Source of the DNA: Candidatus Scalindua sp.
GTDB lineage: Bacteria > Planctomycetota > Brocadiia > Brocadiales > Scalinduaceae
Assembly (NCBI GenBank): GCA_031316235.1
Contig: JALDRA010000001.1
Span: 3,330,001 to 3,362,000, forward strand
Reading direction: 5' to 3'
Length of the DNA stretch: 32,000 nucleotides
This document shows positions 4,313 through 14,044 of this stretch, piece by piece. The stretch's first letter is position 1, and every line of letters begins with the position of its first letter. The notes beneath the pieces are model-generated. The model had not been told where the DNA came from. It saw only the letters and a list, made by a program, of their open reading frames with translations, and did not search any database. Made by a program: the position numbers and the translations under genes.

Positions 4313-5995
4313 GTGTCAGCTAAGGCAATAATGGTTCAGGGTACAGGGTCGAATGTAGGGAAAAGTATTATTGTATGTGCCCTCTGCCGGATTTTCCATG
4401 AAGACGGTATCCGCGTCGCCCCATTCAAGTCTCAAAATATGTCACTCAATTCATACGTGACCCTGGATGGCAAGGAGATGGGGCGGGCTCAGGTCGCACA
4501 GGCGTATGCATCAGGGTTACATCCCGTGGTAGAGATGAATCCTATTCTTCTGAAACCTACAGGAGAGAATGGGTCACAGGTGATTGCAATGGGCAGGCCG
4601 GTAAGGAATATGAAGGCGAGCGAATATTATGAGAATAAAGAGTGTATGTTGGACATTGCGATCAAGGCATATGCAACGCTTGAAAAACAGTTTGATCTCA
4701 TCGTTATTGAGGGAGCCGGAAGTCCGGCAGAGATTAATCTGAAGGACAACGATATAGTGAATATGAAGATGGCGGAGGTTGCCAACGCACCCGTAATACT
4801 TGTGGTTGATATTGAACGGGGAGGAGCTTTTGCATGGGTTGTTGGTACGCTGGAACTTTTGGACAGTGCAGAGAGGGATAGGGTGTCCGGGGTAATTATA
4901 AACAAATTCCGGGGAGATCTGGAGATACTGAAGCCCGGGATACAGATGCTTGAAGAGAAGATCAACAAACCTGTTTTGGGTGTTATTCCCTATTTTAATG
5001 ATATAAAGATTGACGATGAAGATTCTGTCTGCCTGGAACGTAAGGGAAACAGCAGGGGAAGTTATTGTGAAATGCCGGAGAGTGAATGCATAACTATTGC
5101 CGTAATAAGATTACCCAGCATATCCAATTTTACAGACTTTGATCTGCTCAGGCATGAAAAAGGAGTACGGCTGGTTTTTATAGAGACGGTATCATCTTTC
5201 GGTACACCTGATTTAATCATCATACCGGGCACAAAAAATACGATTGGTGATTTAATGTTCATTCAAGAGAATGGAATTGCTGCCAGGATACTTGACCTTG
5301 CAGAAAAAGGGTCTATGGTCATCGGGATTTGCGGAGGGTATCAGATGCTGGGAAATGAGATCAGGGATCCTCAGAACACGGAATCCTCCTCTTCCCACAT
5401 AAAGGGTCTCGGCCTCCTCGATGTTGTGACCACTTTTTTCCCTGAGAAAATTACGTATCAGGTGAAAGCGAGGTTGTATGATAATTCGATCGGATACTTA
5501 CATGGCGTTGCCTGCCAGTCTGCTCAAAGAGCAGCGGGGGGGGAGGATTCCACAGGTAATATTCCCTATGAGGTTACTGGTTATGAGATTCATATGGGTG
5601 AAACGGAGTTATTGGAAGAGGCGTTACCCTTTTCAAGGATTATTGAGAGATCCGGGAGGGTAATTCAATCCGGAAAATCAGACAAGGGCGAGTATCCAGG
5701 CCTGAACGATGGGGCAGTTTCCCGTGAAGGAAATGTGATGGGGACCTATCTACACGGGATTTTTGACAACGATATATTCAGGTTGGACATCATTAACACT
5801 CTGAGACAAAAGAGAGGTCTCTCTCTTTTGTCTCAGAGTGAGTTAACGGTTGCGGATAGTGAGAAAGAGAAACACTATAAGAGACTTGCAGACTTGACCC
5901 GGAAACACCTGGATATGGACTTGATCTATACTTTAATCGGCAGAAACTCTTCAGCTGCCGGGGCAGGACTCTCCGGCGTCAGCATGGAAGTTTGA
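4313..5995 (+). CDS. cobQ: Cobyric acid synthase
   Basis: AIMVQGTGSNVGKSIIVCALCRIF (the CobQ/CbiP N-terminal nucleotide-binding block) and a C-terminal glutamine amidotransferase with GICGGYQMLG and GTYLHGIFDN. The start is uncertain. GTG 4313 has GGAAGGGA 7 nt upstream. The alternatives are ATG 4331 and the track's TTG 4262. Confidence 0.9.
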   Translation: MSAKAIMVQGTGSNVGKSIIVCALCRIFHEDGIRVAPFKSQNMSLNSYVTLDGKEMGRAQVAQAYASGLHPVVEMNPILLKPTGENGSQVIAMGRPVRNMKASEYYENKECMLDIAIKAYATLEKQFDLIVIEGAGSPAEINLKDNDIVNMKMAEVANAPVILVVDIERGGAFAWVVGTLELLDSAERDRVSGVIINKFRGDLEILKPGIQMLEEKINKPVLGVIPYFNDIKIDDEDSVCLERKGNSRGSYCEMPESECITIAVIRLPSISNFTDFDLLRHEKGVRLVFIETVSSFGTPDLIIIPGTKNTIGDLMFIQENGIAARILDLAEKGSMVIGICGGYQMLGNEIRDPQNTESSSSHIKGLGLLDVVTTFFPEKITYQVKARLYDNSIGYLHGVACQSAQRAAGGEDSTGNIPYEVTGYEIHMGETELLEEALPFSRIIERSGRVIQSGKSDKGEYPGLNDGAVSREGNVMGTYLHGIFDNDIFRLDIINTLRQKRGLSLLSQSELTVADSEKEKHYKRLADLTRKHLDMDLIYTLIGRNSSAAGAGLSGVSMEV

Positions 5996-6016
5996 AAGGG
6001 TCACCAGGTTACCTCA

Positions 6017-7063
6017 ATGTATACATATCTCGCCTTGCAAATCGGTATAGCCTTTCTTCTGGATCTTATCATTGGAGACCCGCGCTGGTTCCCCCATCCG
6101 GTAAGGTTGATAGGAAAGGGGATTGAATTACTTGAAATGATAGTGAGGTGGTTGTTTGGATTGGAGAGATTTAACGGTACCGTGTCTGCGGGGCATGTAA
6201 TTCCGGACAGAAAGAGAGAGAGGCTGGCAGGTATTGTCCTGACGGGGGCGATAGTATTCGGGACATACTTCATAACATACGAGATTGTAAGCTTTGGAAA
6301 ATACCTGGGGCAGTTGTGGGAGGTAGCTGTGGGTGCCATAATTATCTACTTTTCCCTCTCAACCCGGGATCTTTTGAGAGAAGCCAGGGGTGTCCTTCAT
6401 ACACTTAAATCCGGCAGAATCGTGCAGGCTCGCGAGAATCTCAGCAGAATTGTTGGAAGAGACACCGGAGAACTTGATGAAGAAAAAATTACAAGGGCCT
6501 GTGTGGAAACCATTGCCGAAAATAGTGTAGACGGGATAATAGCGCCGATTTTTTATGCCGTCTTGGGAGGACCTGCGCTTGTAATGGCCTATAAGGCAAT
6601 TAACACACTCGATTCAATGGTTGGGTACAAAAATGCCGAGTACCTTCATCTTGGATGGGCATCTGCCAGGTTCGACGACATCGTAAACTTTCTTCCTGCC
6701 AGGCTCGCAGCCATACTGTTACCACTGTCTGCCTGGATGTGTGGAGCAAGTTTTTTCCGGTCGATACGAATAATTAAAAGAGATGGACAAAAACATCCGA
6801 GTCCCAATAGCGGAATTCCTGAGGCTGCAGTTGCTGGGGCATTGGGCATAAGACTTGGGGGAACCAGTTCGTACCGCGGAGTTGTCACGGAAAAACCCTT
6901 TATCGGTGATGAAGAGCAGAAGGTAGGTATTGATCATATAAGAGATACGGCAAATATTGTGTTTGTAGCATCAGTTTTGTCAGTCTCTACCGGTATTATA
7001 GCTTTATTGATAGTTTCTAAAATTATTCAGTGGCTGATCTGGGCAGGTTCAGTTCAACCATAA
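6017..7063 (+). CDS. cbiB: Adenosylcobinamide-phosphate synthase (CbiB; called CobD in the Pseudomonas nomenclature)
   Basis: LLDLIIGDPRWFPHPVRLIGKGIELLE at the N-terminus, IAENSVDGIIAPIFY, and PNSGIPEAAVAGALGIRLGG. It is a multi-pass membrane protein and starts 22 nt after cobQ. Confidence 0.85.
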   Translation: MYTYLALQIGIAFLLDLIIGDPRWFPHPVRLIGKGIELLEMIVRWLFGLERFNGTVSAGHVIPDRKRERLAGIVLTGAIVFGTYFITYEIVSFGKYLGQLWEVAVGAIIIYFSLSTRDLLREARGVLHTLKSGRIVQARENLSRIVGRDTGELDEEKITRACVETIAENSVDGIIAPIFYAVLGGPALVMAYKAINTLDSMVGYKNAEYLHLGWASARFDDIVNFLPARLAAILLPLSAWMCGASFFRSIRIIKRDGQKHPSPNSGIPEAAVAGALGIRLGGTSSYRGVVTEKPFIGDEEQKVGIDHIRDTANIVFVASVLSVSTGIIALLIVSKIIQWLIWAGSVQP

Positions 7064-7084
7064 GGTTTCTGTCCAAATAGTATG

Positions 7085-7140
7085 CAGTAAGTGGTAAATG
7101 GTAAGCAGTGAACAGTAGGCAATATGCAAAATAGGAACAG
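7085..7140. repeat. Heptamer-periodic tract (about 8 units, consensus CAGTAAG)
   Basis: CAGTAAG TGGTAAA TGGTAAG CAGTGAA CAGTAGG CAATATG CAAAATA GGAACAG, read directly from the sequence. It is intergenic, just after cbiB. Confidence 0.3.
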
Positions 7141-7356
7141 ACCCTGAAGTCTTAAGTGTTCACCTTAGCATTTCAGATTGCAGACTGCGGAATGCATTCA
7201 TTGCAAATTTAACAATTAGCAGTAAATGTATTGTGAAATATTATGATCTTAAAATGGTCAACTGTGTGTTTATGAGCGATAACGAAAGCAGATTAAAAAA
7301 ATTTTTTATAGATTTGATACAGAAGCAGTATCCTCCGGTATGAAACTTTTTAGGTG

Positions 7357-7473
7357 AGTATACTAAAACCTATTTGGTTTTCGGTTTTACCGGAAACCAA
7401 ATCTTGGTTGCAGTCATACTCGCTCAATTTTATCTCGGATTTTATCCGAAAACCATTATAAGATGAGTATACT
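7357..7473 (+). repeat. Intergenic structured repeat, copy A (lacks the central module)
   Basis: AGTATACTAAAACCtATTTGGTTTTCGGTTTTACCGGAAACCAAATCtTGGTtgcagtcaTACTCGCTCAATTTTATCTCGGATTTTATCCGAAAACCATTaTAAGATGAGTATACT. Relative to copies B and C it lacks about 28 nt (GGTATCCCCGGACAAAAAGCGCCGAGGACTT). Confidence 0.85.
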
Positions 7474-7780
7474 TTGAAAAATGGATGCAAAGAGAGGATT
7501 GGCTTGAACATGTAGCCATACAGAAAGTTTGAACTGACGTACATTATAAACTTTATAAACCTTAATACTCCGATGTCTCTATTTCAAAAAGAAGAAATTA
7601 ATCAAGAGTTATTAAAACTAAAGAATAAAACAAAAAGCAGGAGGCCTGAATATCATTTAGAAATCATCACAGATTAAAATGCTGATCCTTACTTTTTCTC
7701 TTTTTATTTCTTTTACTTAAACTCTTTTCAAGTGAATTCCCGTCATTATGAAAAACCAAAACCAGACGAAAGATTAATTC

Positions 7781-8232
7781 GTGAGTCCACAAGATATTAT
7801 TGATGAAAGTTTTCACATTATTGAAGACCTTGCAGACTTTGATAAAATCCCGAAGACGTCCAGGCAGATGATACAGAAAAAAACGGTGAAATTCTGGGAG
7901 ATTGTGATGGGGGTTGTTGTAAAGGTATCAGTTCCGGAGGGAGAGGAGTTGGTGAAGAAGACCTTTAACTGACACCCAGGTATTATGGGGGGGGGCTATT
8001 TCCATTATCGGGACGTCTGGTATTGTAAAACCCATGTCTCTGGATGCATTCAATGTCTCTCTGGTGTGTGAATTAAATGTTGCAAAAGCTTCGGGATATG
8101 AGACAATCGTGCTTGTTCCGGGTGGTATTGGTGAAAGAGCTTTATCAAAACCAGCAGATGATATCTTAATGAACATATGCGGGAGGGAGTGTGTCGTCCT
8201 GCTGTTATCGGTGTTTCAAAGGATTATAGAGA
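7781..8232 (+). pseudogene. cbiD: Cobalt-precorrin-5B methyltransferase (cbiD) relic: central block only, with an in-frame stop and a homopolymer frameshift
   Basis: The frame from 7781 reads ...IPKTSRQMIQKK...VVKVSVPEGEELVKKTFN, then TGA (7970..7972), then HPGIMGGG. After the G9 run at 7987..7995 the match continues in the +1 frame: AISIIGTSGIVKPMSLDAFNVSLVCELNVAKASGYETIVLVPGGIGERAL. This parallels the CbiD core as I remember it from Salmonella ([35 protein letters not shown]...LVPGNHGERF). The first ~130 and last ~150 residues of a normal CbiD have no counterpart. Confidence 0.6.
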
Positions 8233-8880
8233 GTGGGAAAAAAGCTTGTAAACAAAATTACTATTGTTGGTTGTGGGCCAGGTTCGAAAAAACATATCAC
8301 AGGCCTGGCTATGCAGCGAATCAAGAATGCGGATTCACTGATCGGCAGCAGAAGGCTGCTGGAATTATTTTCAGACATAGAGACTGACAAATATACGGTC
8401 AACCGAAATTACCGATTGCTTATTATGCGCATTATCTCCTTGAGTAAACGTAAAAAAGTTGTTGTCCTTGTAAGTGGAGACCCGGGTTTTTTTAGTTACT
8501 CAAAGCGCATAATAGATAAAGTTGGTCTGGATAATTGTGAAATTATTCCCGGTATCAGCTCGATTCAACTTGCTTTTGCATCAATTGGAAAGAGCTGGAA
8601 CGACGCCTGTTTTGTGAGTCTGCAGGGGAGAAAGGGTGAATTTCCCGAGCTCATAAAAAAGGTGAAAGAACAGAAAAAAGTTGCGGTATTAACTGATAAA
8701 TCCAATAATCTGAAACTTATTTACAAGGGACTGATGAGTGAAGGGATTCGCGACAGGATGGTTTATGTCTGTGAAGATCTCTCTTTAAAAACGGAAAGGA
8801 TACGCTGTTTTAAGTTGACTTCCATTCAGAGAGTACAGGTGAGGGGCCTGAATGTCATTATTATTGTAGATGAGGGCTAG
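8233..8880 (+). CDS. cbiE: Precorrin-6Y / cobalt-precorrin-7 C5-methyltransferase subunit (CbiE)
   Basis: ITIVGCGPGSKKHIT, VVVLVSGDPGFFSY and IPGISSIQLAFA are signatures of the tetrapyrrole methylase fold, and the length (215 aa) is CbiE-like. It uses a GTG start. No cbiT follows. Confidence 0.75.
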   Translation: MGKKLVNKITIVGCGPGSKKHITGLAMQRIKNADSLIGSRRLLELFSDIETDKYTVNRNYRLLIMRIISLSKRKKVVVLVSGDPGFFSYSKRIIDKVGLDNCEIIPGISSIQLAFASIGKSWNDACFVSLQGRKGEFPELIKKVKEQKKVAVLTDKSNNLKLIYKGLMSEGIRDRMVYVCEDLSLKTERIRCFKLTSIQRVQVRGLNVIIIVDEG

Positions 8881-8931: not shown

Positions 8932-8959
8932 TTGACAGATACATTTAAAATGATATGGT
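8932..8959 (+). promoter_or_regulatory. Sigma-70-like promoter candidate for the riboswitch leader
   Basis: TTGACA (8932..8937), a 16-nt spacer, then TATGGT (8954..8959), about 35 nt upstream of the proposed aptamer. Confidence 0.3.
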
Positions 8960-8990: not shown

Positions 8991-9089
8991 GTGAGACATT
9001 ATCGGATTATGCTAAAGGCTAACCTTGAGTGATCAGGGGGCGCAAAGTAAAGGGTCTTTAACGTACATGGATGTGCGTGGAGATGTCAC
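8991..9089 (+). promoter_or_regulatory. Candidate GEMM-I cyclic-di-nucleotide riboswitch aptamer
   Basis: GGCUAA (9017..9022), the hairpin CCUUGA-GUGA-UCAGGG (9023..9038, GNRA loop) and GG-CGCAAAG (9039..9047) mirror the Vc2 core GGCAAA-CCAUUC-GAAA-GAGUGG-GACGCAAAG. A second hairpin, ACGUACAU-GG-AUGUGCGU, lies at 9061..9078. A possible closing helix pairs 8991..8999 with 9083..9089. Confidence 0.5.
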
Positions 9090-9127
9090 GATATACTCCA
9101 TGTTTTCAAGGAAGAGTTTCGCCATTA

Positions 9128-9196
9128 AAGACAGCCTTACTGCCGGGGATTTGAATGTGTTATCACATCTTGGGCGGTAAGGCTGTCTTTTTTTTT
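9128..9196 (+). terminator. Rho-independent terminator (expression platform of the leader)
   Basis: GACAGCCTTAC (9131..9141) pairs with GTAAGGCTGTC (9177..9187). An inner ATGTG/CACAT stem extends the hairpin. A run of nine T follows immediately at 9188..9196. It lies 100 nt upstream of the ATG at 9297. Confidence 0.75.
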
Positions 9197-9296
9197 GGAA
9201 GGAGGTGTACCGGATCTGAGCAGTTATATAAACAGTGGTACGTTTTTTATTTTTTTCTAAATTACAGTCGACCTACTTTAAAGGGGGGGGGAGAAA

Positions 9297-11195
9297 ATGA
9301 ACAGTAAATTATTAAGGTTTCTTCTTTTTACGGGCTCTATGTCATTTGTCTTTGGCGCGTATTCCTTGACGAATGTACAAGCCGATGAAGAACTATCAAA
9401 CAGTCAAGGAGCAAACACAACATTAGTTTCCGGATATGAAGAAGAGTCCGTTTCTGAAAATCAGGAAGAACCGGAAACAACTCCTGGTACAGGGATTGGA
9501 ACGGCAACTCCTGAAGTCGATCTCCATATCTACACACAGGATGAGGTTTCAACTGCAATCCGGCTCGAAGGTAACAGTGCGATTGACGGGTCTTACCGGG
9601 AAAACACGACGATTTTACGAGACAGCAGCGCGTTAAGGATCCTTGATGATGATTCCGGTGAGAGTGTTACGATTAAAGAAAATGGTAATGTGGGTATCGG
9701 TGCCTCGAACCCGTTACAGAAACTCCATATTGGTGGTACTCCGGGGTCAGATGGAGTTATGTTCCCTGATGGTACCGTGCAGACCACTGCAAGTGTCGGT
9801 GGTCCAGCAGGTCCGGCAGGTCCGGCAGGTCCGGCGGGTCCGGCGGGTCCGGCAGGTCCGGCAGGTTCTAATGGAGCAGATGGTGCGGCAGGTCCGATAG
9901 GCCCGATAGGTCCGGTTGGTCCGGTTGGTCCGGTTGGTCCCATCGGTCCACAGGGGCTACCGGGAGATTCACATTGGCTCCTCAACGGGACGAGCACATA
10001 TTATAACGCCGGTGATGTCGGTATTGGAACCAACAGCCCGGTCTGTGACCTTCATGTTCTCCGTTCCGGTGGGAACAACCGTCCACCTACCACATCAGGC
10101 ATTCAATTTAATAAATCAAACCTGATCGTTAAAGCGGATGAAGCTGTAGTAGGCCCGGTAATTCCCGGTCCCGTGATTCCAGGCCCGGTTATTCCACCGG
10201 TAATAATCCCGCTTTTCACTCCGTACTGGTTCTACACGGCAGTTGGAGGTACCGGTTCGACGGGAATCGTGGACGTTGACACAAGATTTGTGAGAAAAAC
10301 AAATACCGATCTCCATTTTCAGACCCAGTCTACTATTAAAACAGGTGCTGTTTCCACGCAGATGACCCTGGACAAGGATGGCGATCTCGGTATCGGCACG
10401 ACAGTCCCGGAATTTAAACTGCACATCCCGGAGGGTTCAGATGTAAATGTAACGACAGGGGGATTTATCGTCCTTGGTTCAAGAACGGGTACGAATATGG
10501 GGATTGATAACAATGAGATGCAGGCCCGTGTCAATGGTGCGGCTGCACAGATGCACTTAAACTGGGAAGGTGGAAATGTTGCTCTCGGTGGTCCGTTAAG
10601 GGGGAGAGGTACCAGTCTCAGTGGAGATTCAAGTGATGGCGTACAAATCGGTACTGGTCTCGCCGGATGGGATGTTTATGTAAATGATGATTTATGGGTT
10701 GCGGATCAGACGAGTACGAAGATACTCCACATTCGGGGTGGATCTGACCTCTCGGAAGAGTTTGATATCAGTAAACCGCATAACCTGAAAGAGTATATCA
10801 AAAATGAGGAAGAGTTTAAGATTGAGCCTGGTATGGTTGCATGTATTGACACCAGGAACTCAGGTAAGCTCATGGTAAGCAGTAAGGCATATGATCGAAC
10901 AGTAGCGGGCATCATCAGCGGAGCAGGTGGTATCAACACCGGGATGCTTATGGGGCAGGAAGGTACTGTTGCCGATGGTGAGTATCCCGTAGCCTTGACC
11001 GGACGTGTTTACTGTAAGGCTGATGCTGCGTATGGTGCTATTCAGCCTGGAGATCTTCTCACCACTTCTGATACTCCCGGATATGTGATGAAGGTAAGTG
11101 ATTATGACAGGGCCCATGGGGCTACTATCGGCAAGGCGATGTCAGCCCTTGACCAGGGAACCGGATTGGTTCTGGTTCTTGTGTCATTACAGTAA
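9297..11195 (+). CDS. Secreted collagen-repeat, tail-fibre-like protein
   Basis: Signal peptide [29 protein letters not shown]. Nineteen uninterrupted Gly-X-Y triplets. Three copies of a G(N/D)(V/L)GIG..(N/S/V)P...LH(I/V) motif ([51 protein letters not shown]). Also GIDNNEMQA and a C-terminal block ...[11 protein letters not shown]...[15 protein letters not shown]...[13 protein letters not shown]...[15 protein letters not shown]...[10 protein letters not shown] strong SD (GGGGGGGGGAG) precedes the ATG. Confidence 0.85.
9801..9971 (+). repeat. Collagen-coding 9-bp tandem repeats
   Basis: GGTCC(A/G)GC(A/G) occurs 7 times (9801..9863), almost identical at the DNA level. It is followed by GGTCCGATA/GGCCCGATA, GGTCCGGTT three times, and further units. 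Translation is (GPA)7 GSN GAD GAA (GPI)2 (GPV)3 [12 protein letters not shown]. Confidence 0.9.
10152..10211 (+). repeat. 15-bp imperfect tandem repeat encoding (GPVIP)3-PVIIP
   Basis: GGCCCGGTAATTCCC GGTCCCGTGATTCCA GGCCCGGTTATTCCA CCGGTAATAATCCCG. The units differ mostly at synonymous positions. Confidence 0.7.
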
Positions 11196-11230
11196 TTACG
11201 TTTTACAAACCTTAATAAGGGAGTATGAAT

Positions 11231-12247
11231 ATGAAGAAATTAAACATACGTTACCTGATGATGTGCAGCTTGTTCCTGCTGCTCACATTGCCGGTTAGCA
11301 TCATGGCTCAGGATGCCGGAGACCCGTATGATCCGTATGCACCCTATGATAACGGTGTGCCTGAAGGGTGGAAGGTTATTGAAGGAGATATCCTTGTCAG
11401 AATCTCAGAACCGGAAGGTACGTTTGAAAGCAATTTGTGGTCAAACCGGAGAGTTCCGTATCAATTCGATTCGAATGTATCATCTCTTAATCAGACCCGG
11501 GCAGTCAATGCCATGGCTGAATTGGAGGCAGTATCAAACATAGATTTCAGGCCGCGAAACGGTGAGGGCAACTATGTCCATTTTCAGAATTCAACCGTAA
11601 ATAATTCTGCCGTTGGCATGAAAGGTGGAAGACAGGTTATCAATATCGTTAGCTGGTCTTCAAGGTTTATCATAGTACATGAATGCATGCATGCAGCAGG
11701 GTTCTGGCATGAACAATCCCGGCCTGATCGTGACAGCTTTGTGACCATTCATCTGGATAGAATTCCATCTGATAAGGAACACAATTTTGACAAGAAATCT
11801 TCGGCTGATGTCTTGGGGACTTATGATTTTGATTCTGTCATGCATTATGATCAATGCGCTTTCTCGGAGTGTTCTAATTGCAGTTCAAATTTGAGTAGCT
11901 GTAGAACCATAACGGTGAAGTCACCCAATACATCACAGCAGGGTGTTATCGGGCAGAGAGACCATTTGAGTGATCTGGATCAGCTTACGATGCAATATCT
12001 CTATCCGCCAAGTAACTGGAGGTTTGTCAATGGTTCTTACTCGAAGGCACCTCCGGCTAACTTTATTACTTTTCTGCAGATAGGCACATTTCATCTACCT
12101 GCAAAGACGATTAGTAAGGGTGTGAGTGTCGTGCCGACAGGAGGGACGCTTATTGTTATGCCCGGAACATATAGCGGAGCGACTACCTATAGCAAGGCTA
12201 TGACCTTGAGGGGGAGTTCTCTGCTTGGGACTGTGACTATCAGATGA
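11231..12247 (+). CDS. Astacin-family (M12A) zinc metalloprotease zymogen with a C-terminal beta-helix-cap-like tag
   Basis: HECMHAAGFWHEQSRPDRD matches the astacin signature HExxHxxGFxHExxRxDRD. The Met-turn is DSVMHY. Upstream, IEGDI resembles the propeptide Asp-switch (FxGD). The signal peptide is MKKLNIRYLMMCSLFLLLTLPVSIMA. I prefer ATG 11231 over 11225 because of its spacing from GGGAG (11219..11223). Confidence 0.85.
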   Translation: MKKLNIRYLMMCSLFLLLTLPVSIMAQDAGDPYDPYAPYDNGVPEGWKVIEGDILVRISEPEGTFESNLWSNRRVPYQFDSNVSSLNQTRAVNAMAELEAVSNIDFRPRNGEGNYVHFQNSTVNNSAVGMKGGRQVINIVSWSSRFIIVHECMHAAGFWHEQSRPDRDSFVTIHLDRIPSDKEHNFDKKSSADVLGTYDFDSVMHYDQCAFSECSNCSSNLSSCRTITVKSPNTSQQGVIGQRDHLSDLDQLTMQYLYPPSNWRFVNGSYSKAPPANFITFLQIGTFHLPAKTISKGVSVVPTGGTLIVMPGTYSGATTYSKAMTLRGSSLLGTVTIR

Positions 12248-12322
12248 GCGTGATACCAGGGTTGTTTTTTACAGAGGGGTTCCCAATAAGGTGCATCCTC
12301 TGAGAAAATGGTAAGTGTATAT

Positions 12323-12361
12323 GCAACAGATCGCGCCGCAGCAAGCGGCATGATCTGTTGC
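12323..12361 (+). promoter_or_regulatory. Strong stem-loop between the astacin and S1 protease genes
   Basis: GCAACAGATC (12323..12332) pairs with GATCTGTTGC (12352..12361). An inner GCCGC/GCGGC stem has the loop AGCAA. No U-tract follows, so it is not a canonical terminator. Confidence 0.4.
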
Positions 12362-12476
12362 TATCTTGCCGGGCTGGAGGTCTGTTTTTCCGAAGAGTGT
12401 TTTGCTTCTCTTTATTCGCGTCAGGAACAGCGAGACTGGTAAAAGAGGTTGCGTGAAAGAGGAAGAGGTGGAGGGA

Positions 12477-13841
12477 ATGAGGAAGATTGAAACGTACAAC
12501 ATCGTGATCGTCACCATATTGCTGCAGCTGGCGTCTTTGTTTTGCCCGATTGTCAGTGGCGCAGACGACACTTCAATCCGTTGTCACAGGGAGCCGTTTG
12601 TCCTGGATTCCGGTGTCCATGAAAATCTGCGGAAGGAAAGCTCTGTGCCATTTCGAGAAACGATGATAATTCCTGGTGTTCCCTGGATGCAGATCCATGT
12701 GAGTGCTTCTAACCTGGGAGAAAGGAGCTGTATTGTAATAACGTCTCTCTATGACGGGGGGCAGCAACGTCTCGACACTCAAAGTCTCGTTCAGTGGCAC
12801 AATTCAAGTGCGTATCTTAATGGTGAAGCAGTAGAGATAGCACTAGTTGTTGGCCCGGGGGAGTCAGGAATCTTTTTCCGTATCGAGGAGATTACGGTTG
12901 GTGAGTGGATTGGGAATGGTGGACCTGCAGACGGATCTTCTTCTCTTCTGTTTCAGGAAAGTATTTGTGGGAGTTCTGACAATCGAGTCTCATCAGAAGA
13001 TCCGGCCGTTGGTCGCATTATGCCAGCCGGCTGCACCGGTTGGATAATCTCAAATGGTGCGTTCCTGACTGCCGGTCACTGCAGCGGTATTGGTTATGTG
13101 CTGCAATTTAACGTACCCGCATCGTTGCCTGATGGAACGCCGCTTAATCCTCTCCCGGAAGATCAGTATCCCGTAACGTATCTCGATTTTCACAATAATG
13201 ATGAGGGAGATGACTGGGCAATATTTCAGACAGGGACAAATAATAAAGGCCAGCAGGCGATAGAAAGACAAAGGGCTTTTTATCGTGTAACACATGACAT
13301 ATCTCCCGAGAGTGTCAGTGTTACCGGATACGGAATAGATTCTCTCCCTCGGGGAACAACGGGAGGCCGCAATTCAGATAACCAGACACAGCAAACTCAC
13401 ACTGGTCACTATATAGGAAAGAATATTGTGAGGCGTACGAAAGTCATAATTGAATATTTAGTAGATACTCTGGGTGGTAACTCTGGTGCTCCTGTTATTA
13501 TTACCCAGGAAGGCCTGACACTTGGAATCCACACCCATTCGGGCTGCAATCCTCCCCATTTCGGGAATCAGGGTACCGGTTTTCAACAGCGCGGTCTGAA
13601 AAATGCAATCCAGACTTTTCCCGGGGTAAATGTGGAATATGTAGACAAAGGTTACCCTGAACTTGCTGTCCGGAAAGACGGTACCGTTTTTAGACCCTTT
13701 AATACGGTGCAGGAGGGTGTCAATGCAGCATCTGCCGGAGCAGTCATCAGCATTGTAAAGGGCTCCTATCATGAGTCGGTTACCATTACCAAGAATGTAG
13801 TTATTGAAGCCCCCGTTGGCACGGTTATTATCGGTCAATAG
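12477..13841 (+). CDS. Secreted trypsin-fold (S1 family) serine protease with an N-terminal pro-region and a C-terminal beta-helix-cap-like tag
   Basis: Catalytic-triad contexts are FLTAGHC (His), DDWAIF (Asp) and TLGGNSGAPVI (Ser). ATG 12477 is preceded by GGTGGAGGGA and gives the signal peptide MRKIETYNIVIVTILLQLASLFCPIVSGA. The track start at 12366 is probably too far upstream. Confidence 0.8.
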   Translation: MRKIETYNIVIVTILLQLASLFCPIVSGADDTSIRCHREPFVLDSGVHENLRKESSVPFRETMIIPGVPWMQIHVSASNLGERSCIVITSLYDGGQQRLDTQSLVQWHNSSAYLNGEAVEIALVVGPGESGIFFRIEEITVGEWIGNGGPADGSSSLLFQESICGSSDNRVSSEDPAVGRIMPAGCTGWIISNGAFLTAGHCSGIGYVLQFNVPASLPDGTPLNPLPEDQYPVTYLDFHNNDEGDDWAIFQTGTNNKGQQAIERQRAFYRVTHDISPESVSVTGYGIDSLPRGTTGGRNSDNQTQQTHTGHYIGKNIVRRTKVIIEYLVDTLGGNSGAPVIITQEGLTLGIHTHSGCNPPHFGNQGTGFQQRGLKNAIQTFPGVNVEYVDKGYPELAVRKDGTVFRPFNTVQEGVNAASAGAVISIVKGSYHESVTITKNVVIEAPVGTVIIGQ

Positions 13842-14044
13842 CAGCTGCTGGATTTTTCACAGAGGCATTACAGTTCTCATCTGATTTTCCTCAATTTCAG
13901 GCTGATCAGATAACACCATTTACTCCGGCAATCTTACAATCCAATCCCGGGTAGGAACGTGAGGGAATCATTGTTCGGAAAAACCTTTCAGCACAAGACG
14001 GTTTTGGTTCAACTACCGGGTTTCCGTTCAATCAATAAATAAAG

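Follow-up and report, generated by a model that had tools for sequence, protein, structure and literature searches.

A candidate c-di-GMP-induced operon of Candidatus Scalindua, predicted to encode a self-maturing collagen-repeat fibre and two enzymes addressed to it

The gp12 protein of phage phi29 carries a C-terminal domain, D4, that is a tandem beta-tulip autochaperone (bioRxiv 10.1101/216911), and mature gp12* terminates at residue 691 (PMC6542822). Fibres of the Bdellovibrio MAT type share a capping-loop consensus, V-G-G/N-pi-x-x-P-x-x-x-L (PMC10769870). With regard to regulation, a class I switch of the ON type precedes an adhesin gene in B. thuringiensis (Bc2; PMC6366702), and in anammox granules high c-di-GMP accompanies matrix production (PMC11224092). 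The locus described here comes from the anammox bacterium Candidatus Scalindua sp. (GCA_031316235.1, contig JALDRA010000001.1). All coordinates refer to the window, the whole stretch of 32,000 nt that we analysed, and all features lie on its + strand.

Three ORFs were verified, at the positions first claimed in a sequence-only reading of this DNA: a fibre gene (9297-11195, 632 aa), a pro-astacin gene (11231-12247, 338 aa) and an S1 serine protease gene (12477-13841, 454 aa). The fibre stop codon is separated by 35 nt from the astacin ATG at 11231, which is also the NCBI-annotated start of an identical Candidatus Scalindua sp. protein (P0001), while the spacer between astacin and S1 is 229 nt. 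The signal peptides proposed for all three proteins could be seen by eye: each N-terminus looks Sec-type, with a basic n-region, a hydrophobic core and then a cleavage-like site, the putative ends being VQA|D, IMA|Q and VSG|A for fibre, astacin and S1 respectively. Pfam Collagen, Astacin and Trypsin/Trypsin_2, the families to which the proteins had been assigned, were all matched. The gene set is not a chance arrangement, since it recurs in other anammox genomes, where it is present in four different genomic contexts: a shared one (L001/L005, L002/L006) and three others (L003, L004, L007), the second Scalinduaceae copy, L004, consisting of fibre and astacin without S1. The proposal of a conserved secreted module of three genes is therefore supported within anammox genomes, where it is syntenic.

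Upstream of the fibre gene is a promoter-like site (8932-8959; TTGACA, 16 nt, extended -10 TG-n-TATGGT), which in a consensus scan gave 10/12 consensus matches plus the TG extension; in the leader alignment the -35 box and its flanking sequence are kept in two other Scalindua loci. There follows a c-di-GMP-I riboswitch aptamer (9007-9147; Rfam RF01051, 50.9 bits against a gathering score of 35) with a GUGA tetraloop on P1a and a ~70-nt hairpin inserted in the P2 loop. The positions that contact the ligand are read as G20/A47/C92, and when aligned to the clan model the sequence gives CGC-A-AAG (the A47 type, not the GGC variant) with an unpaired G-C before P1. Sequence reading, a terminator scan and folding identify a putative intrinsic terminator as the expression platform (9127-9197): its 5' arm (9127-9144) doubles as the 3' strand of the aptamer's P2 and P1 helices, its 3' arm lies at 9173-9190 and its U-run extends to 9197. 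In the minimum free energy fold of 9005-9200, computed without ligand, an 18-bp terminator hairpin replaces P2/P1 (z -6.75). Because the ligand-free fold is a terminator that uses the 3' strand of the aptamer, our model predicts that the leader is a c-di-GMP ON switch. The leader as a whole is kept in two further Scalindua genomes, with orthologous aptamers at L005 and L006 scoring 51-52 bits and the complementarity of the terminator arms maintained in both. A search with our riboswitch model (R1) matched only orthologous Scalindua loci; the riboswitch was not found at L003, L004 or L007, and is thus limited to the syntenic Scalindua locus. Both this element and the homology of the fibre C-terminus had been overlooked in the sequence-only reading.

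The fibre protein comprises the signal peptide, an acidic linker, a body with three capping loops and a collagen segment, and a C-terminal domain predicted to be a self-cleaving chaperone. A profile of its C-terminal part, including the last body repeats, matches the Bdellovibrio MAT fibre Bd2133 (PDB 8ond; E 2.7e-6), and a regex search places three capping loops that match the MAT consensus at 9690-9725, 10017-10052 and 10386-10421. The collagen triple-helix segment (9801-9971) is an uninterrupted run of 19 G-X-Y triplets, matched by Pfam PF01391 over residues 169-224 (E 9e-7, 29 bits against a cut-off of 27.2). We infer that the body is built like the Bdellovibrio MAT fibres, as a trimeric beta-prism into which a collagen triple helix has been inserted. 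Fibre orthologues in anammox loci are 45-90% identical, and collagen repeats are found only in the anammox fibre homologues (L001-L007). The fibre shows no visible cell-wall anchor motif.

The C-terminal domain, which we term colC (residues 476-632; 10722-11192), was modelled by AF2 with pLDDT above 90 across the final 120 aa of the fibre. Foldseek matches of this model are pre-mature gp12 (3suc) and beta-tulip decoration proteins, and in BFVD it matches phage tail fibres as well as 'preneck appendage protein barrel' (E 1e-12 to 1e-8). The colC motif, GGS|DLSEEF (10737-10763), aligns with the gp12 cleavage-site motif SDFAEYFE, which in gp12 reads W-S691|D692-F-A-E-Y-F-E; cleavage is predicted at S483|D484, which falls between nucleotides 10745 and 10746. 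Eight phage G2 domains have [S/A/G]-D-x-x-E-x-F-E in common, and the colC consensus, whatever the partner enzyme, is [S/A]-D-[L/F]-[A/S]-E-x-F-[D/E], with G482, D484 and E487 invariant in 143/143 complete motifs. The family, for which there is no Pfam model, comprises 16,285 protein clusters, the domain being C-terminal in every case. The Pfam Peptidase_G2 model does not detect colC, hhalign of colC against the eight phage G2 domains gave a low probability of 15% (E 0.0018), and tblastn against 50,697 phage genomes returned no match, so that the case for homology with G2 rests on motif, fold and position. At the level of motif and fold, colC is a distant homologue of the self-cleaving intramolecular chaperone phi29 gp12 D4/Peptidase_G2. 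Given the invariance of the aspartate and glutamate, the S483|D484 cut is probably autocatalytic. The procollagen-like logic suggested earlier survives in part: the fibre appears to have a C-terminal non-collagenous domain of the trimerise-then-remove kind, but with its own gp12-like autocleavage motif it would not need a separate processing protease for the cut. After the conserved motif comes a variable linker, 6-40 residues long and probably exposed; none of its features follows the protease class of the partner.

The pro-astacin (Pfam PF01400, E 4e-42) has a signal peptide (11231-11308, by eye) and all of the signatures first read in it: the aspartate-switch IEGDI (11378-11392), the zinc motif HECMHAAGFWHEQSRPDRD (11678-11734) and the Met-turn SVMHY (11834-11848). 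IEGDI is aligned with FEGDI in human pro-meprin beta, whose PDB sequences are matched through the propeptide as well, and the best matches of the AF2 model (pLDDT 86) are pro-astacin 3lq0 and pro-meprin zymogens. The S1 protein matches Pfam Trypsin over residues 185-362 (E 4e-7, 30.4 bits against a cut-off of 20.6) as well as Trypsin_2, and its triad, H201 (13077), D246 (13212) and S336 (13482), is conserved in 21/22 homologues. A region of ~170 aa does precede the catalytic part, but what had been taken for a pro-region is an N-terminal domain (approximately residues 29-175) conserved in S1 partners of other phyla. We regard co-transcription of the S1 gene as uncertain because the spacer contains a strong, GC-rich hairpin (12323-12361), without a U-tract, which L001 and L002 retain with compensatory changes.

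The astacin and the S1 protease share a C-terminal domain of ~70 aa, hereafter the tag. The astacin tag (residues 262-338; 12014-12244; HMM E 3.7e-21) and the S1 tag (residues 386-454; 13632-13838; HMM E 4e-22) cross-match, and the astacin alignment shows the former to be conserved across phyla. A profile built from non-astacin tags only, with the window's S1 tag as first row, hits right-handed beta-helix enzymes and phage tailspikes at the first turn of their helix. Tagged astacins lie directly after a colC gene in 49/59 cases, compared with 0/15 for untagged astacins. Among 57 colC genes drawn from metagenomes regardless of partner, 45 (79%) have a tagged ORF starting ≤400 nt downstream, leaving ∼20% without a tagged neighbour; gaps between colC and partner genes are ∼10-60 nt. 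About 75-80% of tagged partners are proteases, of at least nine families (astacin, S1, M43, reprolysin-like, C10, C25, S8, M23 and M10), and a few are non-proteases (EEP, DUF4185, Kelch, BNR/sortilin, LVIVD/TSP3). A single fibre gene can have two to four tagged genes after it, and some partners carry a surface-anchoring T9SS domain of their own beyond the tag. The conserved unit is a gene for a variable, predicted trimeric fibre ending in colC together with a neighbouring gene for a tagged enzyme, and the pairing is widespread across bacterial phyla; we found no description of it in the literature. The synteny of collagen, astacin and S1 genes holds in anammox genomes, but the trio is not the wider conserved unit, because an S1 homologue is nearby at only 6/74 evaluable astacin loci and the collagen repeats, like the riboswitch, are confined to the anammox lineage.

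We consider the chances about even that the genes form an operon that c-di-GMP switches on and that makes a secreted trimeric fibre of the surface or matrix, able to mature by itself, together with two enzymes addressed to it. Without ligand the leader would fold as a terminator, as computed, while c-di-GMP would lock the aptamer and allow transcription to enter the fibre gene. The fibre would be exported by Sec, its body forming the trimeric beta-prism with collagen helix expected from homology. The colC domain would trimerise the chains from the C-terminal end, which would suit nucleation of the collagen helix, and then sever itself at S483|D484 by means of D484 and E487. Astacin and S1 would be secreted as zymogens, each with the tag as a stand-alone 'first turn of a beta-helix'. 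The tag most likely docks its enzyme on the C-terminal module of the fibre, given that it marks the enzyme adjoining such fibres across phyla; the target could be either the chaperone trimer or the new C-terminus left by the cut, which is conserved (..vLxItGG[S/A]). As to the purpose of docking, we favour display or tethering of the enzyme on the fibre, and think clearing of the cleaved chaperone less likely. It is important to note that a pure display model does not predict the bias towards proteases, which may point to some proteolytic task performed on the fibre.

Such a task is specified by an alternative that we judge unlikely but plausible: the fibre cuts itself, the chaperone trimer stays bound and the tag-borne protease digests it outside the cell, a logic like that of the procollagen C-proteinase, applied to clearance rather than to the primary cut. 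The predominance of proteases from unrelated families is what non-orthologous displacement classically produces when a single proteolytic task has to be filled, and the tight gene coupling and the variable linker are consistent with it; moreover, gp12 D4 is reported to require an active release step (Xiang et al. 2009). However, the same tag is found on non-proteases, up to four different tagged proteins per fibre gene seems excessive for clearing, and no linker feature tracks the protease class.

We think it improbable that the products act independently, the fibre as an adhesin or matrix protein and the proteases as co-regulated nutrient or matrix-remodelling enzymes whose tag binds polysaccharide or the cell surface. 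The homology of the tag to the start of carbohydrate-active beta-helix enzymes and the T9SS domains of some partners would suit this explanation, as would the grouping of tags by enzyme type rather than by locus (S1 tags are 27-33% identical to the astacin tag at the same locus, and 48-56% to S1 tags in other phyla). Yet tag and colC are linked very specifically, as would scarcely be expected of two conserved modules that had no functional connection.

Highly doubtful is the cascade originally proposed, in which S1 activates the pro-astacin and the astacin removes the C-terminal domain of the fibre. The astacin is indeed a zymogen with an animal-type aspartate switch, the three genes are syntenic in anammox genomes, and the conserved fibre motif presents an X|D bond; IGQR is conserved in the astacin alignment, and in BMP-1 and meprin beta this Arg is responsible for the preferred Asp at P1'. 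However, X|D-x-x-E is the autocleavage motif of G2 chaperones, and it is equally invariant beside S1, C10, C25, S8 and M43 partners and at least the Kelch and BNR/sortilin non-proteases. Furthermore, the astacin alignment shows no conserved Lys/Arg at the expected activation site, and most astacin loci, L004 among them, lack S1, leaving activation of the astacin by S1 unsupported. Least probable is an adhesion-versus-release switch in which a protease frees the fibre when c-di-GMP falls. The C. difficile precedent is real (PMC6366702) and the locus does have a c-di-GMP riboswitch, but there is just one, of the ON type, and the genes for fibre and proteases all follow it on one strand; the astacin-S1 spacer contains no second riboswitch, and there is neither a sign of opposite regulation nor a visible anchor motif in the fibre.

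BMP-1 cuts procollagen, and the cascade would give the astacin a like role on a collagen-like fibre. In phi29 the cleaved chaperone is reportedly released in an ATP-dependent step, whereas clearing by a tagged protease would remove it outside the cell. In C. difficile, adhesin and protease are inversely regulated (PMC6366702), while here one riboswitch lies 5' of the fibre gene and the proteases are downstream on the same strand; inverse regulation therefore drops out of the analogy, and what stands is a class I riboswitch directly upstream, kept in orthologous Scalindua loci.

Three consecutive plus-strand genes encoding secreted proteins of Candidatus Scalindua sp., an anammox planctomycete, had been picked out by the sequence-only reading, and these are borne out as described: a fibre gene at 9297-11195 (+, 632 aa), an astacin gene 35 nt 3' of it at 11231-12247 (+, 338 aa) and, after a 229-nt spacer, an S1 protease gene at 12477-13841 (+, 454 aa). 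The Pfam domains that it proposed looking for are all found, with Collagen at residues 169-224 of the fibre protein, Astacin at E 4e-42, and Trypsin at residues 185-362 of the S1 protease (30.4 bits against a cut-off of 20.6). It was also right about the module and its secretion signals (signal peptides judged by eye). The catalytic triad of the S1 protease, H201/D246/S336, is kept in 21 of 22 homologues. Cross-matches and an HMM show that the S1 protease ends in the same domain as the astacin; we call this ~70-aa domain (residues 262-338 of the astacin and 386-454 of the S1 protease) the tag, and the C-terminal domain of the fibre protein (residues 476-632) colC.

Housekeeping genes flank the module, namely those for cobalamin synthesis, succinate dehydrogenase/fumarate reductase, Trk and MiaB. 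The G+C content is 0.47-0.49 in the module (9000-14000) but 0.35-0.40 in the intergenic and flanking stretches beside it, and three homologous loci from other anammox genomes (L003, L004, L007) lie in other genomic contexts; these two observations suggest that the module is a movable cassette. One Scalinduaceae genome holds two copies, one without the S1 gene (L004) and one with it (L005). Upstream of the module, between cbiB and a cbiE-like methylase gene, 7063-8233 is AT-rich (G+C 0.35) with short ORFs only, and at the matching position Scalindua AMX11 (L002) has extra genes for CbiX, a DUF433/PIN pair and CbiC.

We surveyed 80 astacin-anchored loci, one genome per GTDB species. Within tens of nucleotides upstream of the astacin catalytic domain there is usually a gene ending in colC; the last ~160 residues that it encodes are 40-64% identical to the Scalindua fibre C-terminus, and the remainder is unrelated. 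Tagged astacins lie directly 3' of a colC gene in 49 of 59 cases and untagged astacins in none of 15, and an S1 homologue is found within 6 kb of the astacin at only 6 of 74 loci. A second survey was anchored on colC, using 80 metagenome loci picked regardless of partner, and of the colC genes that could be evaluated in it, 45 of 57 have a tagged ORF within 400 nt downstream. The conserved unit is the pair of fibre and tagged enzyme, not the trio, and this cassette spans Planctomycetota, Chloroflexota, Acidobacteriota, Verrucomicrobiota, Bacteroidota and other phyla. About three quarters of the tagged partners are proteases (S1/Trypsin_2, astacin, M43, reprolysin-like, C10, C25, S8, M23 and M10), and rarer partners are EEP nuclease/phosphatase, DUF4185, Kelch, BNR/sortilin and LVIVD/TSP3 proteins. 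Two to four tagged genes can follow one fibre gene, as at the anammox loci L003 and L007. At both of these (L003 8001-13761; L007 9953-15600) there are four in succession, encoding an astacin, two S1 paralogues and a 353-449-aa protein without a Pfam match.

The tag is C-terminal in 129 proteins, internal in 26 (often ahead of a T9SS sorting domain) and N-terminal in 11. In three metagenomic loci that are probably from Bacteroidota (L135, L145 and L159), the partner protease carries the tag and then a T9SS C-terminal sorting domain, and a fourth, L126, has the sorting domain without the tag; an enzyme with such a domain would itself be surface-anchored. Right-handed beta-helix enzymes (xylosidase 3vst, residues 4-69; pectinesterases; alginate lyases) are matched by the tag profile at their opening turn, and phage tail spikes (8fqc, 9rkv) at the point where the beta-helix begins; in Pfam the tag weakly matches the first 40-50 positions of DUF1565 and NosD. 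Given these matches to opening turns, the tag is a stand-alone 'first rung' of a beta-helix. Since its linkage to colC is near-perfect whatever enzyme it is fused to, we argue that the tag and the fibre end interact.

The colC family comprises 16,285 clusters (50% identity, E ≤1e-3), every source name displayed for it being 'hypothetical protein', and the domain stands at the very C-terminus in 150 of 150 best matches among these clusters. Sequence searches of Pfam, NCBIfam and the PDB with colC gave no match that informs. Its AlphaFold model, with pLDDT >90 over the last 120 residues, is matched in Foldseek by beta-tulip phage decoration proteins and by the pre-mature phi29 tailspike gp12 (PDB 3suc), and in a library of viral models by large phage tail-fibre proteins and a 'preneck appendage protein barrel' at E 1e-12 to 1e-8 (for the latter, E 6e-10 and rmsd 3.5). 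In gp12 the D4 domain, a tandem beta-tulip autochaperone, is required for trimerisation (bioRxiv 10.1101/216911); Pfam names it Peptidase_G2, 'IMC autoproteolytic cleavage domain'. Mature gp12* stops at residue 691 (PMC6542822), where the sequence reads TGGNTW-S691|D692-FAEYFE, and [S/A/G]-D-x-x-E-x-F-E is common to eight diverse phage G2 domains. colC starts with ..ITGG-[S/A]-D-[L/F]-[A/S]-E-x-F-[D/E], in which G482, D484 and E487 are invariant in 143 of 143 complete motifs, whichever enzyme adjoins, and the F is kept in 142 of the 143. When the colC profile is aligned with the phage G2 alignment using hhalign, the region of the cleavage motif is aligned at E 0.0018, with low probability; the Pfam model Peptidase_G2 (PF11962) finds no match in three colC sequences at E up to 10, against 312 bits for the gp12 control. 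Our conclusion is that colC is a cellular domain distantly related to the G2 chaperone, and from the motif we predict that the fibre of Scalindua most probably undergoes self-cleavage at S483|D484, within GGS|DLSEEF. In the variable linker that follows the motif, no linker or cleavage-site feature tracks the class of the partner protease.

Two other assignments were discarded. Membership of Peptidase_S74 (PF13884) is ruled out by the lack of SDxxxK and of a Lys at +5, by Ser being replaced by Ala in 45% of members, and by the absence of a Pfam match. A prophage origin of the locus is ruled out by the near-absence of colC from viruses, with one match in 2.9 million viral contigs and none by tblastn against phage genomes. 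At one locus (L086, 3448-10694) two fibre proteins that end in the other type of self-cleaving chaperone, Peptidase_S74, enclose a colC fibre together with its tagged S1 partner, and a gene for a large reprolysin-like protein adjoins this cluster.

As to what the interaction is for, we favour the reading that the enzymes are displayed on, or tethered to, the fibre via the tag, which is in keeping with the non-protease partners that carry it, with the several tagged genes per fibre gene, and with a cleavage motif that is intrinsic to the fibre. It is possible, and we put this forward tentatively, that colC fibres and the ~70-aa beta-helix-cap tag make up a widespread, undescribed docking system that extends over many phyla and over 10,000 protein clusters and is comparable in function to cohesin and dockerin. 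The landing pad would be a phage-derived self-cleaving chaperone module, or the conserved fibre end that this exposes; secreted enzymes of interchangeable kinds, for the most part protease zymogens, would be loaded there onto surface fibres, with c-di-GMP as the switch in Scalindua. Another explanation, which we consider less likely than display, is that the tagged proteases clear the cleaved chaperone away. The preponderance of proteases among the partners would fit this. As Xiang et al. 2009 are said to have found, gp12 cleaves itself and its D4 needs active, ATP-dependent release, and for a secreted fibre this ATP-dependent route would be unavailable outside the cell.

The astacin has both the zinc motif HECMHAAGFWHEQSRPDRD and the Met-turn SVMHY, which are invariant or nearly so in the astacin alignment (A1). 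Its IEGDI aligns with FEGDI, the aspartate switch of human pro-meprin beta, and the astacins of A1 share a C-terminal extension of ~75 aa. The AlphaFold model (pLDDT 86) finds crayfish astacin and meprin zymogens as its best matches, the very best being pro-astacin 3lq0 over all 235 residues, and myroilysin is a much poorer match. A 340-aa version of the ORF was discarded, there being no exact-sequence match to it; the start is annotated at 11231 in an identical protein from Candidatus Scalindua sp. An Arg in S1' would argue for specificity for Asp.

The S1 protease had been cast as the first step of a cascade in which it would activate the astacin, which in turn would process the fibre. The results lend this no support, because S1 genes are mostly absent from the neighbourhood of the astacin, because the expected astacin activation site has no conserved basic residue in A1, and because the X|D bond of the fibre lies within an autoprotease motif, one kept equally well beside cysteine and serine proteases and beside at least two kinds of non-protease partner, Kelch and BNR/sortilin proteins.

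With the characterised bacterial astacins flavastacin, myroilysin and LegP, the Scalindua astacin has the M12A catalytic domain in common (the NCBIfam LegP model gives 140 bits, under its cut-off of 300), yet it differs from them in its C-terminal tag. It is nearer to animal astacins (29-35% identity) than to myroilysin (15-20%), and its switch is the animal-type aspartate switch IEGDI, of which the general form FXGDI has been defined, whereas that of myroilysin is a cysteine switch (PMC9848320). The IEGDI-bearing family has at least 531 matching loci among GTDB species-representative genomes. Tagged astacins occur, with IEGDI kept, in free-living environmental bacteria of the Planctomycetota, Chloroflexota, Acidobacteriota, Verrucomicrobiota and others (the window and L004-L083). 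In the same review bacterial astacins are presented as rare and scattered, acquired horizontally by animal-associated taxa and devoid of the animal motif FXGDI (PMC9848320); the tagged astacins contradict it on both counts, being spread through free-living bacteria and retaining IEGDI.

The fibre body contains 19 uninterrupted G-X-Y triplets (PF01391, 29 bits against a cut-off of 27.2). It scores far below the cut-offs of the Scl and Lcl adhesin models, which places it outside those families. The body also holds three copies of the capping-loop motif of mosaic adhesive trimer (MAT) fibres, V-G-G/N-pi-x-x-P-x-x-x-L, and a profile of the fibre C-terminal part including the last body repeats (A2) matches the crystal structure of Bd2133 (8ond) at E 2.7e-6. 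Members of the MAT superfamily carry a conserved ~130-aa beta-rich domain directly following the signal peptide; the N-terminus of the Scalindua fibre is an acidic low-complexity stretch. Among fibre proteins of the astacin-anchored loci, collagen is limited to the anammox lineage.

A link to c-di-GMP had been raised by analogy, and a class I c-di-GMP riboswitch does lie directly upstream of the fibre gene. The single Rfam element within the whole 32 kb is a c-di-GMP-I aptamer (RF01051) at 9007-9147 (+), which scores 50.9 bits against a gathering score of 35 and ends 150 nt 5' of the fibre start codon; orthologous aptamers in other Scalindua loci score 51-52 bits. In its alignment a G stands ahead of a paired GC, the sequence CGC-A-AAG has A where the GGC variant has G, P1 is preceded by an unpaired G-C, and the GNRA tetraloop on P1a is GUGA. 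The canonical ligand-contacting positions G20, A47 and C92 (Vc2 numbering) are present. A GGC-variant type is ruled out by a score under its gathering score and by the presence of A47. In the P2 loop, an insertion of ~70 nt (9056-9126) forms its own hairpin and is kept in all three Scalindua copies.

A promoter-like site (8932-8959, +; TTGACA, 16 nt, TGnTATGGT) precedes the aptamer. From sequence and a terminator scan, an 18-bp terminator (+) follows, the 5' arm of which (9127-9144) is the 3' strand of P2 and P1, and the 3' arm of which (9173-9190) is followed by nine T. This terminator is the minimum-free-energy fold of the leader without ligand and shares an arm with the aptamer, so ligand should allow read-through, and the leader should be, on these predicted folds, a c-di-GMP ON switch ahead of the fibre operon. 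Promoter, aptamer and terminator are kept in the orthologous loci of two other Scalindua genomes; L003, L004 and L007, which are paralogous or displaced copies, lack them. No riboswitch was found among 168 loci searched in other phyla with a covariance model (R1), a narrow model built from three close Scalindua leaders. R1 does detect, at 40 bits, a degenerate c-di-GMP-I-like leader at L084 (2691-2826; the same in L085), which Rfam does not confirm. It precedes a second Scalindua operon, the last genes of which encode a tagged LVIVD/TSP3 protein (4753-5829) and a 295-aa mini-fibre with colC (6001-6888).

The proposal that fibre and protease are inversely controlled, as a release switch, is contradicted by this layout, with a single switch 5' of the fibre gene, the astacin gene 35 nt on, and no second riboswitch in the 12247-12477 spacer before the S1 gene. 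That spacer contains a GC-rich hairpin (12323-12361; stem ~16 bp, loop AGCAA, no U-tract). Two other Scalindua genomes preserve it, with compensatory changes, and its role may lie in processing or stabilisation, or in attenuation that would uncouple the expression of S1.

No part of this system is new in kind: the riboswitch is a class I c-di-GMP riboswitch, the fibre is MAT-like, the chaperone G2-like, and the enzymes are an astacin and an S1 protease. What appears to be undescribed is colC as a cellular family, the tag as a module in its own right, the pairing of colC and tag across phyla, and riboswitch control in anammox bacteria; a full-text literature search for c-di-GMP riboswitch together with astacin returned no papers. 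A hypothesis of structure and mechanism would become available for more than 16,000 clusters of 'hypothetical' secreted proteins, namely that of a G2-like self-cleaving chaperone on cellular fibres and not on phage spikes alone. The Scalindua operon would be a candidate c-di-GMP-controlled matrix component in anammox bacteria, for which we know of no earlier protein candidate. Anammox granules and biofilms matter to engineering, and the tag, if it is indeed a docking module, could be used for enzyme display. Since matrix production in anammox granules goes with high c-di-GMP (PMC11224092), the operon is a candidate for a c-di-GMP-induced matrix or adhesion fibre.

The closest comparison for colC is the phi29 gp12 tailspike (pre-neck appendage), which likewise has a ~160-aa C-terminal domain of tandem beta-tulip-like fold on a trimeric beta-structured fibre; in both, [S/A/G]|D-x-x-E-x-F-[E/D] marks the domain boundary, and their hydrophobic last strands resemble each other. 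Unlike gp12, colC is cellular, secreted and invisible to the Pfam G2 model, and its fibre gene is paired with a tagged enzyme gene, of which phi29 has none. MAT fibres are trimers, a subset of which carry a self-cleaving S74 chaperone at their end (Caulton et al. 2024, PMC10769870). The S74 and non-S74 MAT fibres of Bdellovibrio share with the Scalindua fibre secretion, a variable body and the capping-loop motif, whereas the latter has a G2-like chaperone instead of S74, a collagen insert, tagged enzyme partners and no known predatory context.

The analogy drawn earlier with animal procollagen and its BMP-1/tolloid C-proteinase is apt for folding, because nucleation of a collagen helix needs a C-terminal trimerisation module: in both, a collagen helix goes with a removable C-terminal non-collagenous trimerisation domain, and in Scalindua an astacin zymogen gene adjoins the fibre gene. 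For the protease the analogy probably fails, the removal motif being of autoprotease type; furthermore, the collagen is confined to anammox bacteria and the astacin is swapped for unrelated enzymes elsewhere. An autoprotease motif and an interchangeable class of partner enzyme are indirect evidence, and they point against the astacin as remover of the fibre C-terminal domain.

The C. difficile circuit on which the release switch had been modelled is real, with c-di-GMP riboswitches that turn the adhesins CD2831/CD3246 ON and PPEP-1/ZmpI OFF, and in B. thuringiensis Bc2-cap is a class I read-through ON switch ahead of an adhesin gene (PMC6366702). The Scalindua operon resembles these in placing a surface fibre under a c-di-GMP riboswitch, of class I ON type as in Bc2, and in involving a metalloprotease, but the opposite control of adhesin and protease is not matched here: one riboswitch serves fibre and proteases, with no inverse regulation and no sortase anchor. 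Finally, the cohesin-dockerin system of the cellulosome offers an analogy, in which a scaffold with a conserved module is accompanied by many enzymes that each bear a small conserved module, their genes lying side by side. The folds are unrelated, the cargo that the colC/tag pair would dock is mostly proteases, and the scaffold module is a chaperone predicted to cleave itself.
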